NCBI GenBank assembly: GCA_964410385.1
Contig: CAYPHL010000002.1
Location: 16,720-80,719 of the forward strand
Source of the DNA: an uncultured Rikenellaceae bacterium
GTDB taxonomy: Bacteria > Bacteroidota > Bacteroidia > Bacteroidales > VadinHA17
DNA: 64,000 nucleotides
Direction of reading: 5' to 3'
Numbering within the stretch: the stretch's first letter is position 1; each line of letters opens with the position of its first letter. Below, in pieces: positions 2,971-59,638 of the stretch. The position numbers and the translations under genes were made by a program. Below the pieces are notes generated by a model, which had not been told where the DNA came from, made no database searches, and saw only the letters and a program-made list of their open reading frames with translations.

Positions 2971-3042
2971 AATACGTATAAATACCCCATTCAAAATAGG
3001 TCTTAATCCTCTTACCCGGTCTTCTGTATATCAATACTTTTG

Positions 3043-17478: not shown

Positions 17479-17597
17479 TTTCCGGCTTCCGGCGACCGGC
17501 TAGCGGCTACCAGCTTCCGGCGACCGGCAACCGGCTTCCGCATGCCGTACGCCGGATGCCGCACACCGCACACCGCACCCCGGAAGCCGCACGCCGG
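17479..17597. repeat. degenerate 7-bp tandem array (NNNCCGC/NNCCGGC units)
   Basis: ttccggc ttccggc gaccggc tagcggc ... gaccggc aaccggc ttccgc atgccg tacgccgg atgccgc acaccgc acaccgc accccgg aagccgc acgccgg. Lies between divergent gene starts (17460 minus, 17702 plus). Confidence 0.85.
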
Positions 17598-17701
17598 AAT
17601 ATTAAATAAAATTCCTGCCAACGCAAAATTATTTGAGAGTATTGTATTATTTTTATTACCTGATTTATCGTAAACAATAACAAACATACTAATAAATATT
17701 T

Positions 17702-18658: not shown

Positions 18659-18686
18659 AGCACAGGATTTTTACCCTGTGCTTTTT
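18659..18686 (+). terminator. rho-independent terminator
   Basis: AGCACAGG-atttttac-CCTGTGCT followed by a T-run. Confidence 0.7.
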
Positions 18687-18758
18687 GCTCTTAGCCCTCC
18701 GCTCTTAGCCCTGAGCTCTTTGCCCTTAGCTCTCCGCTCTCCGCCCTGCTCTCCGCCC
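18687..18758. repeat. degenerate 7-bp tandem array (GCYCTNN units, about 10)
   Basis: gctctta gccctcc gctctta gccctga gctcttt gccctta gctctcc gctctcc gccctgc tctccgc cc. It abuts the stop codon (18759-18761) of the convergent HAD gene. Confidence 0.85.
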
Positions 18759-19361
18759 TTACCAGTTCGAGTCGTACCACGACCGTACATCGGTAACAAT
18801 CATACCGGCATTGCGGGCAGCCTGGATACCAAGTTCTGCATCTTCGAAGACTTCAATGAACCGGGGTTCGACATTCATCAGCTCGGCACATTTAAGGAAG
18901 GTCTCCGGATCAGGTTTGAATGCATTTACATCGTTCGCAGTTACAACAATGTCAAAGTAATGGCGCAGACCGGTGATCTCAAGTGTCCGTTCAACCGCTT
19001 CCCTGTGTCCGCCCGTACCTACCGCCATCGGCAGCTTAAGATGGTATTTCTTTACTATATCAGTTACCGGAGTAATGGGTTTTACAAGATGCTGAAGCCT
19101 GAAAAACTCTTTGAGCTTCTCACTCATTATCTCTTCAATAGTAACACTTCCGTTGAGTCCGCAGTCCGTGATTATTTCTTTGGCAATTATCCATCCGGGA
19201 CTGCCTGTATGCTTCCTCAGAAAACTGGTATCTATATGTGCACCAAACTTTTCACAGGCTTTCTTCCATCCCTGAAAATGATACGGCATTGTATCTGCAA
19301 GTGTACCGTCCAGATCAAATATAAGCCCCTTTACTCCTTGTTGAATATCGTATAACATCAT
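18759..19361 (-). CDS. HAD-superfamily hydrolase (beta-phosphoglucomutase-like subfamily IA)
   Basis: Motif I GLIFDLDGTLADT, with later motifs (VGTGG; FEDAELGIQAARNAGM). Confidence 0.85.
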   Translation of the reverse strand: MMLYDIQQGVKGLIFDLDGTLADTMPYHFQGWKKACEKFGAHIDTSFLRKHTGSPGWIIAKEIITDCGLNGSVTIEEIMSEKLKEFFRLQHLVKPITPVTDIVKKYHLKLPMAVGTGGHREAVERTLEITGLRHYFDIVVTANDVNAFKPDPETFLKCAELMNVEPRFIEVFEDAELGIQAARNAGMIVTDVRSWYDSNW

Positions 19362-19421
19362 TTCAAAACAAGGCGCAAAAATAATAAATTAATATTAAAT
19401 ATCTGAAAGATTGGTTTATAC

Positions 19422-20039
19422 TTATCCTGAACCGGAACTGTCAGTATCATCCCTGAAAAAACCTTCCAGTTCCACATTCCCCTTATTGATATCGATCTTC
19501 CTGATAATGACTTTTTCAATCTTTTGTCCGGTTTCTGCAGAAAGCTCCCTTAATAATTCCTTCCTCATATCCGGAGCGAGAAGCTCAGGCTTTCCAAAAA
19601 CAATATTAACCTGTGTAAGAGCATCCTTCCTGAGGAACAATTCAAGCAGATATGCGGAAATAATTATTATCGAATTGACAACTATGGCACCAACAACTGG
19701 TGGAGGGACATTTGCCTGAGAGTTTATTATTGAAACTCCTATTACAACAAATATATATGTCATATCCTTGGCAGTGAAATTCACAGTACGGAACCGAAGT
19801 ATAGCAAAGATGGCAAACAAGCCGAGAGCCATTCCGAGCTGAATATTAACTGTCTGAAGCAATGAACATAGCAGAAAGATTATTATTCCCATGAGTGAAA
19901 AAGAGAAAACATATTCCTTCTTCCCTGTAAAACGGTAATAAATTACTCCTACAAGTATGAAGATGACAAAAAGGTTTACTGCAAACCGTATCATTATACT
20001 GAAAAGAGTATGTTCCAGTGCAAGTGTTGAAAGCGACAT
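19422..20039 (-). CDS. DUF4956-like integral membrane protein
   Basis: Four or five hydrophobic helices followed by a charged C-terminal domain. Overall resemblance to the DUF4956 family; recognition-based only. Confidence 0.55.
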   Translation of the reverse strand: MSLSTLALEHTLFSIMIRFAVNLFVIFILVGVIYYRFTGKKEYVFSFSLMGIIIFLLCSLLQTVNIQLGMALGLFAIFAILRFRTVNFTAKDMTYIFVVIGVSIINSQANVPPPVVGAIVVNSIIIISAYLLELFLRKDALTQVNIVFGKPELLAPDMRKELLRELSAETGQKIEKVIIRKIDINKGNVELEGFFRDDTDSSGSG

Positions 20040-28296: not shown

Positions 28297-28319
28297 ACTC
28301 TAATAGATCAATCTTTAGT

Positions 28320-28449
28320 TACCGTCATTGCGAGGAGTCCCGCATAAGGCGGGACGACGAAGCAATCCTTCCCTATAACCCCAACTCCTCTCCCTGCTAC
28401 CGTCATTGCTTCGTCCCACCCGCGGCGAGACGACGAAGCAATCCGTTCC
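28320..28449. repeat. two tandem copies of a ~50-bp REP-like palindromic element inside the operon
   Basis: Both copies run TACCGTCATTGC...GACGACGAAGCAATCC. Copy 1 has the hairpin GTCCCGC-ataag-GCGGGAC (28337-28355). Copy 2 has the perfect 11-bp inverted repeat ATTGCTTCGTC (28405-28415) / GACGAAGCAAT (28432-28442). Confidence 0.85.
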
Positions 28450-28465
28450 GAATTACTCCAATGCC

Positions 28466-30911: not shown

Positions 30912-32108
30912 TCAGGTGATTTTTTTCTTCAGTTCAATGGTTCGTTTTACTGATGATTCTATAAGCTCTTTCGCGTTCATCAATCTCCTTCCGGAATTAA
31001 TGTCGAGGGCCACGGCCATTCGTTCCGTGCAGCAGTAACAAGGATCGACCGCTGCCAGTGAGATAGTTGCATCTGAAATAGTCTGACCGATACAAGATTT
31101 CTTAAAGGTTGCAATATTGACGTAGCTTGGCGCTCTAATCTTATGCCTGACAGGTGAATTGGACCCGTCAGAAACCACAAAATGAAAGACTTCACCTCTG
31201 GGAGCCTCTGCCCGGCCTGTCCCGGAACCTTCAGGTATCTCATTCACCTTAACTGCAATATCTCCCTCCGGTGTTTTTTCAAGTCCGCCAAGACATTGTT
31301 CAATAATTGAGATTGATTCATACATCTCCAGCAGTCTGACCTCTGCTTTTGCAAAAACATCACCTTCTTCCGCGGTGATCACCTTCCAGCTGACTAGCGG
31401 ATATGCTGCATAAGGATCGTCTCTTCTGATATCTATAGAAACACCGGAAGCCCGGGCAGTCGGACCTACAGCCGCAAAGTCAGTTATGTCCTGTTTTGTA
31501 AGTACCCCTACACCTTTTGTCCTGGCATGTATAACGGGATCATCCATCACTGCACCTGTCAGAAGATCAGTTTTTTTCTTTACATCTGAGAGGGTTTTTC
31601 TTATTGTGGAAATTTTATTGTTTTCAATATCCCGGCGCACACCTCCGACCTTGAATATTGCATAGCTGTTCCTGTTGCCGGTTATCATCTCAAACAGATC
31701 GAGAATGGGTTCACGGTATTTCCATGCCCACATGAAAACAGTGTTATATCCCAGGAAATGACCTGCAAGGCCAACCCACAGGAGATGACTATGGATCCTT
31801 TCAAGTTCACCGATAATGGACCTTATATATCTGGTCCTGTCAGTTATATCAATACCGGCAATCTCCTCAACAGCATTGGCAAAAGCAAAGGGATGAGAGG
31901 TGGAACAAATCCCGCAAATCCGCTCGACAAGGAAAAAGACCTGATCATAGGTTTTTGATTCACTTAGCTTTTCTATCCCCCTGTGATTATATCCCGTTTC
32001 CCACTTAATATCTTTTACGATCTCACCGTCGCAGAATAGCTTGAACAGCTCAGGTTCTTCCTGCAGAGGATGATAGGGACCAATCGGTATGAGTGTTTTT
32101 GTACCCAT
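30912..32108 (-). CDS. group-4 (energy-converting, NuoD-like) [NiFe]-hydrogenase large subunit
   Basis: N-terminal Ni-binding RICGICSTSH and C-terminal DPCYCCTER are both intact. A tail of about 35 residues follows the C-terminal motif (substrate for the endopeptidase). 398 aa, NuoD-sized. Confidence 0.9.
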   Translation of the reverse strand: MGTKTLIPIGPYHPLQEEPELFKLFCDGEIVKDIKWETGYNHRGIEKLSESKTYDQVFFLVERICGICSTSHPFAFANAVEEIAGIDITDRTRYIRSIIGELERIHSHLLWVGLAGHFLGYNTVFMWAWKYREPILDLFEMITGNRNSYAIFKVGGVRRDIENNKISTIRKTLSDVKKKTDLLTGAVMDDPVIHARTKGVGVLTKQDITDFAAVGPTARASGVSIDIRRDDPYAAYPLVSWKVITAEEGDVFAKAEVRLLEMYESISIIEQCLGGLEKTPEGDIAVKVNEIPEGSGTGRAEAPRGEVFHFVVSDGSNSPVRHKIRAPSYVNIATFKKSCIGQTISDATISLAAVDPCYCCTERMAVALDINSGRRLMNAKELIESSVKRTIELKKKIT

Positions 32109-32119
32109 TTTGCCAGTTC

Positions 32120-32575
32120 TTATTTAAACTCTTTCCTGTAAGGATAAACACCTTCTGCCCAGTTACCTTCAGATATAAGCTTTTCCTGGTTGGGATGATT
32201 CAGAAAGTTAATTCCAAATAATTCATGAATCTCCCTCTCGATCCAGTTTGATGCATTGAATAAATTTGAAAGAGACTCTATCTGAGGATTTTCACTGTTA
32301 ATTATCACAAGAATGTTAAGAACAAGTCCTGTTGAATCAAGACTGAAGTGATAATTGATCTCAAATCCTCTTTTTGTATGAAGGGCTGAAGCTATTATGA
32401 ACCTTAATCCTGCAGTCTTGTACAGATACTCAGCAATTCCGACAATGGATTCCGGTTTCACTGTTACCGTTGCCCGCCTCTCACTCTTCTTAGTCACTTC
32501 AAGTACCTCAGTTTCGAAGCTCTTCTTTAATTTTTCTATTACCAGATCCGTTCCCATTGTATATCGTTCCAACAA
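32120..32575 (-). CDS. NuoC/HycE-N/MbhK-like subunit
   Basis: 151 aa with ERE(I/V)xE(L/M)FGI-type motif (WIEREIHELFGINF). Confidence 0.8.
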   Translation of the reverse strand: MLERYTMGTDLVIEKLKKSFETEVLEVTKKSERRATVTVKPESIVGIAEYLYKTAGLRFIIASALHTKRGFEINYHFSLDSTGLVLNILVIINSENPQIESLSNLFNASNWIEREIHELFGINFLNHPNQEKLISEGNWAEGVYPYRKEFK

Positions 32576-32586
32576 AATATTTTAAA

Positions 32587-32766
32587 CTCACCGCTCACCT
32601 CTCAATACTCATCCCTCACTACTCACAACTCATCTCTCACCCCTCTCAACTCATCCCTCACCACTCATCTCCGGGTTGGCAGTTGGCAGTTGGCAATCTG
32701 ACTAACTACTTACCGCTTTTCGCCCCGCACCCCGCACCTCGCACCTTGCACCCTGCTTCCCGCACT
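32587..32766. repeat. tripartite 7-bp tandem arrays inside the hydrogenase operon (CTCANNN x12; GTTGGCA x3; NNGCACC x6)
   Basis: Blocks at 32587-32670, 32675-32695 and 32725-32766. They fill the 189-bp gap between the NuoB-like stop (32765-32767) and the NuoC-like start (32575). Confidence 0.9.
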
Positions 32767-33175
32767 ACCTTCCCGCCAGTTTCACTATCCCGGCGATGAT
32801 CGCCTCCGGCTTGGGCGGACACCCGGGTATATAAGCATCAACGGGGATGATTTTGTCAACCGGTCCCGCAAACGTAATGCCTTCGGCAAATATCCCACCC
32901 GTACAGCCGCATGCTCCTATTGCTACCACCAGTATTGGTTTGGGAGCCTGATGATATATCTCGATCAGTCTGTCTTTATCACGCTTATTGATTGATCCGT
33001 TAACAAGAAGTACATCAGCATGTCTAATGCTTCCTACAAGGAGGATCCCGAAACGTTCAAGATCATACCTTGGAGTAAGGCAATCAAGTATCTCAATATC
33101 GCAATTATTGCAGGAGGCCCCTCCGAAATGAAAGACCCATAGTGATTTTTTAAAGCAATAACTCTTAAATCCCAC
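32765..33175 (-). CDS. NuoB-like [NiFe]-hydrogenase small subunit
   Basis: Cys ligands GGASCNNC, IGACGCTGG and PGCPPKPE of the proximal [4Fe-4S] cluster. 136 aa. Confidence 0.9.
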   Translation of the reverse strand: MGFKSYCFKKSLWVFHFGGASCNNCDIEILDCLTPRYDLERFGILLVGSIRHADVLLVNGSINKRDKDRLIEIYHQAPKPILVVAIGACGCTGGIFAEGITFAGPVDKIIPVDAYIPGCPPKPEAIIAGIVKLAGR

Positions 33176-33186
33176 TTTCTGTAATT

Positions 33187-34119
33187 TTAGTAACCAAACG
33201 AAATCAAAACCAGTGCAATAACAGCGATCAGATTCATCCAGATCACGAAGAAGCTGATGGCCTGCTTTATCTTTAGTCTTGGATTTGTATTTCTTATCAA
33301 TGTCAATATCAGAACTATAAGAAGTATTTTGAGTACCGACCAGAGTATGTTTATCCCCCCGGGCCTGAACCCGTTCATTAGTACAGCAACAAGAAGTGCC
33401 GGAAGGATGAAAATCATAATGTATTTTGTAAGTTTTATGAGTGCATATGCAGGTCCGGAATACTCGATGAAAATACCTTCAGTGATCTCTGCTTCTGCTT
33501 CAGGTATATCAAAGGGGACCAATGCCAGTTTTGCCTGAACACAGAATATCCCGGCAATGAAAAGAATTACCCCTGAGATGCTGGCAATAAAAGGTGATCC
33601 TTCCTGTTGAGTGTGGATTATTGTGTACAGATCGAAATTCTGTCCGGATTTCATTATAATTCCTGCAATGAAGAGCAGGAAGGTAAGCTCGTAACTCATG
33701 ATGAGCTTCATTTCCCTCGATCCCCCGATAGCAGCAAGCGGATTTCCCGAGGCCAGAGAACCTGTTATGTACGAAAACGACGGGATTGTAAGCAGGTAGA
33801 AGATGACCAGGAGATCTCCTTTGAATCCCGTGGTGATGTTAAACAAAGGTAACAATATGAAGATACCTGCCAGTACAGCTCCGATAACCCCGAAAACAGG
33901 AGCCAGCAGAAACAGAACAGGTGATCCGTGTTTCGGCAGAATAGTCTCCTTTACAAGCAAAAGTTTGAAAAAATCATAAAAAGGTTGCAGCAGTGGAGGT
34001 CCCTTGCGGAACTGGACCCTGGCAGTGATCTTCCTGTCGAACCATGATAGAAATGCTCCTGTAACCGCGGTGAAAAGCAGCCCCGGGAAAATAAAGAAAT
34101 AAAAGAAATTGACTGCCAT
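33187..34119 (-). CDS. NuoH/HycD/MbhM-like membrane subunit
   Basis: 310 aa polytopic protein. DRKITARVQFRKGP and EAEAEITEG motifs of the NuoH family. Confidence 0.85.
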   Translation of the reverse strand: MAVNFFYFFIFPGLLFTAVTGAFLSWFDRKITARVQFRKGPPLLQPFYDFFKLLLVKETILPKHGSPVLFLLAPVFGVIGAVLAGIFILLPLFNITTGFKGDLLVIFYLLTIPSFSYITGSLASGNPLAAIGGSREMKLIMSYELTFLLFIAGIIMKSGQNFDLYTIIHTQQEGSPFIASISGVILFIAGIFCVQAKLALVPFDIPEAEAEITEGIFIEYSGPAYALIKLTKYIMIFILPALLVAVLMNGFRPGGINILWSVLKILLIVLILTLIRNTNPRLKIKQAISFFVIWMNLIAVIALVLISFGY

Positions 34120-43969: not shown

Positions 43970-44019
43970 GATGGTAGTATGGTCGTGCGGTCATGCGGTC
44001 GTGCAGTCGTGCGGTCTGG
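43969..44019. repeat. 8-bp tandem array (NNTGNGGT / GGTCGTGC units, about 6)
   Basis: aggatggt agtatggt cgtgcggt catgcggt cgtgcagt cgtgcggt. Starts at the last base of the TAG stop (43967-43969). Confidence 0.85.
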
Positions 44020-44057
44020 TTAAAAATTGTTAAAAAAATAATTGTTAATAATTTCTG

Positions 44058-44168
44058 CCGTTGCCCCCCCTGTACCGTTGCGCCCCTGTACCATTGTACC
44101 ATTGCGCCCCTGTGCCATTGCGCCCTTGCGCCGCTGTACCATTGAGCCATTGCGCCGCTGTGCCATTG
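44058..44168. repeat. 8-bp tandem array (CCNNTGNN units, about 14), same unit type as 2873-2970
   Basis: ccgttgcg cccctgta ccattgta ccattgcg cccctgtg ccattgcg cccttgcg ccgctgta ccattgag ccattgcg ccgctgtg ccattg. Confidence 0.9.
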
Positions 44169-44224
44169 TTTATTTTAATTCTAAATTATCAACAAATAGA
44201 GTTACTCAGTTTTTTTTTAGTCTA

Positions 44225-47785: not shown

Positions 47786-47864
47786 CAGTCTGTGCAGTCC
47801 TGCAGTCCTGCAGTCCTGCGTTGTTAGCCGAACCTTGCTTTGACTTTTGCCAACTGCCAACTGC
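47786..47864. repeat. bipartite tandem arrays: CAGTCCTG x3 (plus a degenerate copy), then GCCAACT x2
   Basis: Blocks at 47786-47818 and 47849-47864. The second unit is the reverse complement of the GTTGGCA unit at 32675-32695. Confidence 0.85.
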
Positions 47865-57430: not shown

Positions 57431-57620
57431 AGGGACGGGGAGACGAAGGGAGAGTGGGAGATTAGGAGAGTGGGGGAGAGGGAGATGAGGAGAGAGTGGG
57501 TTGAGAAAAATGGGAGATGAGGAGAAGGGGAGATGAGGAGAATGGGAGAAGAGGAGTTGGGAGGTGAGAGATGAGTAACGGGCAAAGAATCCCTTCCGGG
57601 GAGGGGAAAGGGTTGGGTTA
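57431..57620. repeat. purine-rich (G/A) degenerate tandem-repeat block with G-tracts
   Basis: Starts right after the TAG at 57428-57430. Repeating gggagatgaggagaa-type units of roughly 15-16 bp. Contains GGGacGGGGagacgaaGGGagagtGGG (57432-57458). Confidence 0.85.
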
Positions 57621-59472: not shown

Positions 59473-59638
59473 CGGAAGAGTGTGGAATGGGGGTTAAAAG
59501 GAGAGGGGGTGAAAAGGAGAAGGGGTGAAAAGGAGAAGAGGAGACTAAGAGCCGCAAAACCGCAAAGCCGAAACGCCGCAAAGCCGTAAAACCGCAAAGC
59601 CGCATAGCCGCATAGCCGCAAAGCTGCAAAGACTAAGA
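59473..59638. repeat. bipartite array: purine-rich ~16-bp repeats (59473-59551), then CCGCAAAG 8-bp units x10 (59552-59630) flanked by ACTAAGAG
   Basis: ggggtgaaaaggagaa repeats, then ccgcaaaa ccgcaaag ccgaaacg ccgcaag ccgtaaaa ccgcaaag ccgcatag ccgcatag ccgcaaag ctgcaaag. ACTAAGAG occurs at 59544-59551 and 59631-59638. Confidence 0.9.

Follow-up and report, generated by a model that had tools for sequence, protein, structure and literature searches.

The hydrogenase operon and its repeat block

The DNA analyzed here is a stretch of 64,000 nucleotides (the window) from contig CAYPHL010000002.1 of an uncultured Rikenellaceae bacterium (assembly GCA_964410385.1), and its subject is a block of 7-bp tandem repeats located between two genes of a hydrogenase operon. 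According to Pfam, a group-4 [NiFe] hydrogenase operon of the Mbh/Mrp type occupies the minus strand of the window between about 36.4 and about 23.4 kb. Its genes encode, in order, a Fer4_22 protein, a FAD/NAD-binding protein, a 4Fe-4S ferredoxin, NuoH-like, NuoB-like and NuoC-like proteins, the NiFe large subunit, a NuoL-like protein, MbhD/E, MnhB and more Mrp-type subunits. The operon comprises 12 or more genes and has the same gene order in the annotation of relatives; the nearest proteins in the databases are named 'MAG: Bacteroidales bacterium' (MAG, metagenome-assembled genome).

A preliminary description of this DNA, made from the sequence alone, had named the genes on both sides of the block, and Pfam agreed with these assignments. 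Upstream lies the gene for the NuoB-like (MbhJ-like) hydrogenase small subunit (32765-33175, minus strand; PF01058 Oxidored_q6, E = 1.9e-31), with its stop codon TAG at 32767-32765, and downstream the NuoC-like (MbhK-like) gene (32120-32557, minus strand; PF00329 Complex1_30kDa, E = 2.7e-22). The next gene of the operon after the latter encodes the [NiFe] hydrogenase large subunit (NuoD-like; 30912-32108, minus strand; PF00346 and PF00374), the expression of which would depend on transcription crossing the arrays.

The start of the NuoC-like gene is most likely ATG 32557 and not TTG 32575, because the homologues of about 100 related loci (numbered here with the prefix L) align from this ATG and the gene calls of relatives have the same start. 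In nearly all loci the tblastn alignments began at residue 1 of the ATG form, and the NuoC-like gene calls of relatives were 145 aa long. With this start the gap has 207 untranslated nucleotides (32558-32764), and 29 nt, not 11 nt as had been described, separate the arrays from the homology-supported start codon.

Arrays were called with Tandem Repeats Finder (TRF), and the self-match at a lag of 7 nt was tested against 2000 dinucleotide-preserving shuffles. TRF confirmed three period-7 arrays between the NuoB-like and NuoC-like genes. The three unit types had been recognized correctly before, and their order on the mRNA from 5' to 3' is GGTGCNN x6, spacer, TGCCAAC x3 and TGAGNNN x12. The first of these, array 3 (about six units, NNGCACC on the plus strand; 32723-32764, minus strand), starts directly after the NuoB-like stop and was called by TRF at 32723-32765 with period 7, 6.1 copies and 77% matches. 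It is followed by a non-repetitive spacer of 27 nt (32696-32722, minus strand), which was read off the sequence as GCGAAAAGCGGTAAGTAGTTAGTCAGA(T) on the mRNA. Array 2 (32675-32695, minus strand) consists of 3.0 copies of GTTGGCA on the plus strand at 100% identity, and can be read on the mRNA as CAACTGC in another register. Array 1 (32587-32667, minus strand; NCTCANN on the plus strand) has a higher-order period of 21 nt; TRF called it at 32586-32667 with period 7 and 11.7 copies, and also with period 21 and 4.0 copies (score 103). The core CTCA of this array (TGAG on the mRNA) was held in 47 of 48 cells, and the remaining three positions of the unit vary.

The self-match at lag 7 of region 32576-32764 was 0.61, compared with 0.298 ± 0.033 (maximum 0.42) in the shuffles (z = 9.5), none of which (0/2000) reached the observed value. 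The preliminary description had the gap almost entirely filled by arrays. They account for about 145 of the 189 nt (77%) of this region, and the remainder is made up of the 27-nt spacer, a 7-nt joint (32668-32674) and 10 nt beside the TTG. Stop codons occur in all three frames of the block. The antisense open reading frame (ORF) of 80 aa at 32557-32799 on the plus strand is an artefact of stop-free repeat sequence.

Comparison with a sister lineage

The block is real and is fixed in its lineage. An assembly artefact was rejected, since an independent Logan assembly from a different sequencing run (L119, run ERR7850097) reproduces the block, with 99.46% identity over 1843 nt, the same 207-nt gap, identical copy numbers and three substitutions. 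The 27-nt spacer is found there with one substitution. The window and L119 are the two assemblies of the block-bearing lineage that were compared.

A sister lineage is represented by more than 30 contigs (L001-L025 and L106-L112) from JGI, ENA, NCBI and Logan, with 97-98% amino acid identity to the window in the large subunit and 94-95% nucleotide identity over 21 kb. Every assembly of this lineage has a gap of 47 nt, which reads TAG TGAGGTG TGAGGGR TGAG TTTAAAATAACTGGTTGGAACGATATACA ATG from the NuoB-like stop to the NuoC-like start. The only structural differences in the 21-kb alignment were the present block and a duplicated hairpin element in the gap between the MbhDE and MnhB genes. In the window this second gap (28297-28465, minus strand) contains two copies of the hairpin element (GGATTGCTTCGTCG...CCTCGCAATGACGG), and the relatives with 94-95% identity contain one.

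The gap of the sister lineage holds a TGAGNNN seed of 2.5 units abutting the NuoB-like stop, compared with about 12 units in the window, and this comparison points clearly to the TGAGNNN array as an expansion of the seed. The sister lineage has no counterpart of array 3, the unique spacer or array 2. The seed form was also found in L045 (85% amino acid identity), the first TGAG of which includes the stop codon, and expanded arrays of the TGAG type are present at the junction in L032, L081 and L026. The block therefore appears as a recent, lineage-specific expansion. The arrays would be dispensable, because the sister lineage keeps the same intact operon with a gap of 47 nt.

The preliminary description had proposed this locus as the best place to test what such arrays do, and the comparison bears out its value as a test bed, with natural alleles that have the block (window, L119) and natural alleles that lack it (L001-L025, L106-L112). 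The same operon with a 47-nt spacer or with a 207-nt spacer of three arrays, in lineages about 5% apart, amounts to a natural experiment, and dozens of other array states exist at the same junction across about 70 species.

The genes downstream of the block are intact and under purifying selection. The ratio of nonsynonymous to synonymous divergence (dN/dS) relative to the sister lineage was 0.04 for the large subunit (compared with L107), 0.09 for the NuoL-like gene and 0.09 for MbhDE. Around the block, dS relative to L107 was 0.44-0.46 for the NuoH-like and NuoB-like genes, 0.056 for the NuoC-like gene (dN/dS 0.42) and 0.28 for the large subunit gene. Divergence from L107 is a mosaic over window positions 32120-34119, and the block lies near a recombination-like boundary. 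Patches of comparable divergence were seen at other places in the 21-kb alignment.

These data bear on the suggestion that the part of about 100 nt formed by array 3, the spacer and array 2 came as one piece, either as a non-autonomous mobile element or by recombination import. Three distinct modules are present together in comparison with a lineage only 5-6% diverged, TGCCAAC is also found at 47848 of the window, the junction is at the boundary between the divergent NuoH-like/NuoB-like patch and the conserved NuoC-like patch, and the same junctions gather elements resembling MITEs (miniature transposable elements with inverted repeats) as well as hairpin elements in other species. However, the piece has neither terminal inverted repeats nor a target-site duplication, and its short form could equally derive by deletion from a longer ancestor. 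A 20-mer from the 27-nt spacer gave only a chance match in the JGI metagenomes, on an unrelated high-GC contig, and no second copy of the spacer was seen by eye in the other array gaps that were read, with no pattern search of the window or the loci made. Import as one piece is thus considered doubtful. A mobile element of the MITE or repetitive extragenic palindromic (REP) type was rejected as an identity for the block, as there were no inverted repeats and the 20-mer was unique except for the single chance match.

Translation initiation of the NuoC-like gene

It had been suggested that the arrays influence translation initiation of the downstream gene. Between the arrays and the ATG lies an A/U-rich leader of 29 nt (UUUAAAAUAUUUUGUUGGAACGAUAUACA, with A at -3; 32558-32586, minus strand), which is outside the arrays, aligns with that of array-less relatives and is near-identical in them. 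Translation initiation in Bacteroidetes does not use a Shine-Dalgarno sequence and is favoured by an A at -3 and a leader free of structure (PMC6847099); their ribosomes ignore Shine-Dalgarno-like sequences (PMC6847099, PMC7797042). An action of the arrays on initiation found no support, given their distance of 29 nt, the same leader in relatives without arrays and a sister lineage that lacks the block. As initiation in Bacteroidetes is independent of the Shine-Dalgarno sequence, G/A-rich arrays should be harmless if the proximal leader is kept.

Transcription and RNA signals in the gap

A terminator scan detected no terminator-like hairpin in the gap, and no inverted repeat was found there. 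The Bacteroidetes -7 box (TAnnTTTG) was absent from the minus strand within 32558-32764. Two weak sigma-70-like matches (32605-32576 and 32585-32556) compare with 1.0 expected, and this consensus is not applicable to Bacteroidetes. The predicted RNA fold of the gap was no more structured than that of shuffled sequences (z = +0.54). No canonical G-quadruplex motif (four tracts of at least three G, loops of 1-7 nt) was present in the gap, even when loops of up to 12 nt were allowed. A search of the window against Rfam 15 at the gathering threshold was negative, as was one of 32450-32900 at E <= 1.

Rho-loading regions have more C than G, and RhoTermPredict requires a C/G ratio above 1 for a Rho utilization (rut) site (PMC6407284). 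In windows of about 78 nt, C did not exceed G anywhere in the gap, the highest C/G ratio being 0.64. The earlier statement that the arrays are G-rich on the mRNA was accurate, with 40.6% G and 11.1% C on the sense strand of the 207-nt gap.

Several candidate signals were rejected on these grounds: an internal promoter or terminator (sigma-70-like matches at background level, no terminator and no -7 box), a structured RNA (z = +0.54 and no Rfam match) and, for this locus, a G-quadruplex (no canonical motif). A sigma-54-like reading of (GTTGGCA)n was dismissed by eye, because the spacing of GG and GC does not fit.

The conserved gene order, the gap free of transcription signals and the purifying selection on the downstream genes together suggest that transcription reads through the block. 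The preliminary description had held that the arrays, being within a co-directional operon, must be compatible with read-through, and it would be right in this by the same lines of evidence and the unstructured RNA.

If instead the block splits the operon, transcription would end in or before the arrays and restart at an internal promoter by the NuoC-like gene. The leader of the window (ATATTTTG) is nearer to TAnnTTTG than that of relatives (ATAACTGG), without matching it, the two weak sigma-70-like matches are twice the number expected, and similar arrays of the window do occupy gaps between operons, e.g. 2827-2970, which is followed by a TAnnTTTG box. Yet the coding strand of the gap contains no exact TAnnTTTG, no terminator-like site and no hairpin, the G-rich and C-poor RNA is not rut-like, and the sigma-70 consensus does not apply to Bacteroidetes. 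Furthermore, gene order and tight spacing are kept in relatives, many of which have only 0-10 nt at this junction. A split operon is therefore regarded as improbable.

The junction in related species

The preliminary description had recommended comparing the same junction in related genomes. In about 70 species-level relatives, to which the following counts refer, the gap varied from 0 to 275 nt and contained many different heptamer arrays. The NuoB-NuoC gap was at least 30 nt long in 35 of 69 species and the MbhDE-MnhB gap in 42 of 72, and five other junctions of the operon rarely or never expand. Only two of roughly eleven junctions accept arrays. Most NuoB-NuoC gaps of at least 30 nt carry heptamer arrays, with units such as GTACTGG x8, GAGCGGA x12, AAGACAA x7 and GTAGTAA x7, and in many species this gap is only 0-10 nt. 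From this distribution, the NuoB-NuoC and MbhDE-MnhB junctions appear to be hot spots that permit insertions. In other species, an entire inserted gene, G-rich hairpins or arrays of heptamers are found in the MbhDE-MnhB gap.

The variation in length also bears on the idea that the arrays form a contingency (phase-variation) locus, switching the downstream hydrogenase genes by copy number. The phase-variation microsatellites of Haemophilus and Neisseria have units of 1-5 nt in coding regions or promoter spacers, and their length switches expression. The present arrays share with them copy-number change driven by slippage, but their units are of 7 nt, they lie in an untranslated spacer within an operon and their length is free. 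Members of the class do change copy number among close relatives, and contigs of relatives often break at such arrays. Against a switch, the arrays are neither in a coding region nor between promoter elements, and in species with intact operons the untranslated spacer varies in length between 0 and 275 nt. Copy number was identical in the window and L119, which is a weak test of heterogeneity as only two assemblies are involved. Phase variation is accordingly rated very improbable.

Various other elements were seen at these junctions. In L026, L030, L041 and L105 the MbhDE-MnhB gap (e.g. L041, 13604-14261) contains insertions of 500-650 nt that encode a small protein and are preceded by one to four tandem units of about 55 nt containing GAATATCGAACAAGGAT. 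The small protein resembles the four-helix-bundle '23S rRNA intervening sequence' family and may belong to it. In three species an element of about 113 nt that resembles a MITE and ends in perfect inverted repeats, GAGTGTGTAATA...TATTACACACTC, is inserted in the NuoH-NuoB gap (L041, 9010-9123; L043, 8877-8991; L056, 105-219). The NuoB-NuoC gap of L095 (9277-9545) is made up of four units of about 50 nt, each with GGGCACA heptamers and a hairpin (GCCAGCCGTAGCTTTAGCGGAGGCTGG). This higher-order repeat shows that heptamer arrays and REP-like hairpins were amplified together.

A recurrent element of about 28 nt, CCCCTCC-N3-GGAGGGG-N3-GGGGTGGG, combines a short C/G hairpin with four G-tracts that form a canonical G-quadruplex motif. 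It was found at 57590-57617 of the window (plus strand) and in L033 (9487-9514), L043 (9470-9498 and 13648-13676), L038 (13653-13681) and L082 (9389-9417, 9460-9488 and 13615-13642), among others. Ten of its 12 matches are in the two hot-spot gaps of the operon, all on the sense strand and often beside heptamer arrays. The element has no match in Rfam.

Strand composition of arrays within the operon

Of 61 arrays found inside the operon across species, 55 were rich in purines on the mRNA strand, and G exceeded C in 49 compared with 10. Arrays beyond the end of the operon were mixed and often C-rich, and only 8 of 22 were purine-rich (Fisher p = 2e-6 relative to the intra-operon arrays). Among 33 long intra-operon gaps, a window with a C/G ratio above 1 occurred in nine on the sense strand and in 29 on the antisense strand. 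A stop codon in each unit was tried as a rule for arrays within the operon and was dropped, as many units have none (AAGACAA, GTACTGG, TGCAGGG).

These compositions are suggestive of an orientation filter, by which arrays may arise in either direction and only those giving unstructured, C-poor RNA would survive inside the operon. The two array-accepting junctions, and the purine-rich arrays with G above C within the operon, unlike those beyond it, are possibly general regularities. If the asymmetry arises because Rho loading or RNA structure is avoided, it would amount to a rule for the untranslated sequence that is tolerated in operons translated without Shine-Dalgarno sequences.

The asymmetry can also be read as a sign of function. 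The arrays could be a cis-element of the mRNA, either a phased platform for an RNA-binding protein or an element of stability or uncoupling that tunes the subunit ratio. Candidates for the bound protein include a cold-shock-domain, S1 or RNA-recognition-motif (RRM) protein with one unit per monomer, or a TRAP-like protein on about 12 GAG repeats. The recognition spacing of TRAP is 2-3 nt, while the GAG spacing here is 4 nt, so the likeness to TRAP is a resemblance only. In addition to the strong strand asymmetry within operons, a cis-element would account for the invariant 4-nt core with three free positions (CTCA/TGAG, 47 of 48 cells) and for units that distant species share at the junction (TGAGGTG in L001, L032, L045 and L081; GTTGGCA in L055 and L081). 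An effect of short tandemly repeated repetitive (STRR) sequences on transcript stability or translational coupling has been proposed (PMC2670836). However, in the sister lineage the same operon has just 2.5 units and lacks arrays 2 and 3, the gap is only 0-10 nt in many species, the unit sequences at the junction differ almost wholly among species, and GTTGGCA is found both in the direction of the operon and against it. No candidate binding protein turned up, and none was searched for. A functional cis-element is, on this evidence, unlikely, and it is the least unlikely of the alternatives considered.

Relation to known tandem repeats

To our knowledge, heptamer arrays were first recognized in cyanobacteria more than 30 years ago and subsequently in Beggiatoaceae; we know of no function demonstrated for them. 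In the present clade such arrays have hardly been described. The locus belongs by description to the class of STRR sequences and long simple sequence repeats (LSSRs), with a unit of 5-11 nt, an intergenic and dispersed location and polymorphism in multiples of the unit. It is not a cyanobacterial STRR in the strict sense, as the host belongs to the Bacteroidales and the unit sequences differ.

In cyanobacteria, STRRs of 7 bp separate hupS from hupL, two genes of a single transcription unit (PMC2670836), and the hupS-asr0689 gap contains adjacent arrays of ttgtcag x3, ttgttag x2 and ccactga/ctactga (PMC2408588). The present locus resembles these in its tandem intergenic 7-bp units, in several adjacent arrays per gap and in its position between hydrogenase subunit genes. 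In contrast, a hairpin was reported for the hupS-hupL STRR, whereas the RNA here is unstructured (z = +0.54), and in TRF calls for the present window units of 8 bp are roughly as frequent as those of 7 bp.

The TAACTGA repeats are intergenic direct repeats of heptamers, mostly 'forward' and upstream of start codons, and in the Bacteroidetes Gramella and Aequorivita long arrays share gaps with further heptamer arrays where the closest relatives have short gaps free of repeats (PMC4679880). This pattern resembles the gap with several heptamers described here and the short gap of its close relative. No TAACTGA array is present at this locus. Array 2, read as CAACTGC on the mRNA, shares five of seven positions with TAACTGA, and units carry stop codons in both. 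Unlike TAACTGA, there are many degenerate units and no dominant heptamer, and the arrays are 29 nt from the start codon, not a few nucleotides.

LSSRs have units of 5-11 nt (Mrazek et al. 2007) and, according to the passages devoted to them in PMC4679880 and PMC4692102, are dominated by heptanucleotides, are intergenic and phylogenetically patchy, and are proposed to originate by slippage. The present arrays share the heptanucleotide dominance and the intergenic and patchy occurrence, LSSR being a descriptive class and not a mechanism. As far as those passages describe the surveys, the present clade (uncultured Bacteroidales of anaerobic digesters and sediments) is outside them.

The heptamers GGGAATC of Xanthomonas and GGGGA(C/T)T of Nostoc fold into G-quadruplexes, and one such array is inside the pec operon (Rehm et al. 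2015, PMC4692102). G-rich heptamers close behind the upstream ORF are a common feature of these repeats and the present ones, which, in contrast, have no G-quadruplex motif.

Origin and role of the block

With moderate confidence, we regard the block as a lineage-specific composite of hypervariable repeats of the STRR/LSSR class that grew by slippage and persists as an inert, tolerated spacer within the operon. It is most likely a tolerated spacer and not a regulator. For the TGAGNNN array, growth would have proceeded by 7 and 21 nt at a time, through unequal exchange or slippage during replication. Arrays 2 and 3 and the 27-nt spacer may have expanded where they are, may have been acquired by recombination from another array locus, or may be ancestral and then deleted in the sister lineage. 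In the polycistronic mRNA the block would be an inert spacer that does nothing the operon needs, and it would persist because its orientation and composition do not disturb expression. Features that may make it tolerable are a G-rich and C-poor RNA without a Rho-loading (rut-like) region in which C exceeds G, the lack of a hairpin or terminator, stop codons in all three frames and the 29-nt A/U-rich leader, which is left untouched.

Several points weigh against this interpretation. Conservation within the unit is uneven (CTCA intact in 47 of 48 cells, variation at the remaining three positions), which slippage with random decay does not predict; the conserved CTCA could reflect a sequence-specific constraint, and the 21-nt duplication explains only part of it. 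The recurrence of units at unrelated loci and in other species may mean that they are copied between loci or that some sequences are preferred. For these two reasons, a functional or mechanism-specific explanation keeps a low, though not negligible, probability. The short form could equally be the deletion derivative of a longer ancestor. Read-through is deduced from the sequence. The species entering the array counts are not phylogenetically independent, and sequence in these gaps that is not repetitive is also 65% purine, so that the purine bias may be a general constraint on spacers and not a filter specific to arrays. Finally, nine of the 33 gaps are exceptions to the avoidance of rut-like sequence, e.g. 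L081 with AACATTT x18.

A more speculative extension, to which we give little credence, is that intra-operon arrays are phased, G/A-rich single-stranded platforms that bind a protein or shield the spacer from Rho, and/or that a repeat-spreading mechanism operates across three phyla. As platforms, with a conserved 4-nt core every 7 nt, they could be an orientation-dependent insulator that uncouples operon modules in Bacteroidales. As for the spreading mechanism, the xxACTGx heptamers found here (CAACTGC, CTACTGC and CGACTGC) resemble TAACTGA of Beggiatoaceae and CTACTGA/CCACTGA of Nostoc, and by analogy a dedicated generator or spreader with a sequence preference could be at work.

Arrays of the same class elsewhere

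In addition to the present block, seven gaps of the 64-kb window contain 7- or 8-bp arrays detected by TRF. These eight gaps are co-directional, divergent or convergent, and none of the arrays is in a long ORF. In 1.58 Mb of related DNA, period 7 was by far the commonest (62 arrays, compared with 14 of period 8).

The gap at 2827-2970 contains 8-bp arrays of CTAACACC and NYTGYRCC, and the TAnnTTTG box that follows it is found at 3035-3042, shortly ahead of the next gene. Two 8-bp arrays (GGTCGTGC and CCNNTGYR) with an A/T-rich spacer between them are located at 43981-44169. Parts of these two distant gaps (2874-2970 and 44058-44169) belong to the same 8-bp family (CC-NN-TG-YR), in which the units vary largely from CG to TG/CA, suggesting transition-biased decay of CpG. 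G/A-rich 8-bp arrays are present in a co-directional gap at 57448-57568, and a G/A-rich array of period 16/8 bp followed by AGCCGCAA x10 at 59490-59631.

A divergent gap at 17482-17598 contains two heptamer arrays (CCGGCTA and CCGCACG) and is hypervariable among close relatives. L113, with 97% nucleotide identity, differs from the window there by indels of 7 and 42 nt and by substitutions, a relative with 97% amino acid identity has a homogeneous (CCGCACG)n array, and one with 92% has a different element. At 18674-18760, a convergent gap with heptamer-based arrays (GCYCTNAGCCCTCN), the arrays are identical in L113 and are replaced by other arrays of the same family in the more distant L114-L117. 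These dynamics are as expected for slippage-prone tandem repeats, with the class persisting at a locus while its content turns over.

The convergent gap after an [FeFe] hydrogenase gene (47793-47864; flanking genes assigned by Pfam) was found by TRF and pattern search to contain TGCAGTCC x3.4 and TGCCAAC x2.4. The unit GTTGGCA thus recurs at 47848-47861 of the window, and it is also present at the NuoB-NuoC junction of L055 and L081, in the opposite orientation and immediately 5' of other arrays. In cyanobacteria a limited set of units (STRR1-3) is reused at many loci; here GTTGGCA and related GTNGGCA and CCGCACN units recur, but most array units were seen once. Many units belong to the GTNGGCA family, which is xxACTGC on the other strand, and units containing ACTG or CAGT were found in 16 of 83 arrays, compared with about 5.5% expected.

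Contigs of relatives begin or end inside heptamer arrays in L027 (1-72), L114 (1-60), L117 (4910-5026) and L026 (1-50). Assemblies in this clade often break because of such arrays. In practice, the arrays break short-read contigs and inflate the calls of intergenic ORFs in metagenome-assembled genomes of the clade.

Two differences in gene content were also noted. The window has a DUF4956 gene (205 aa; ORF 19422-20039, minus strand) that is missing in L113, the difference being an indel of about 575 nt (19420-19994) between a HAD hydrolase gene and a 355-aa gene. Between the FAD/NAD-binding and ferredoxin genes of the hydrogenase operon, an extra ORF of about 450-570 nt, the product of which starts with MK..D/E.LK.IRFF..., is missing in the window and its close relatives and is present in about 30 of 63 loci, e.g. 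L029, L031, L034 and L035.

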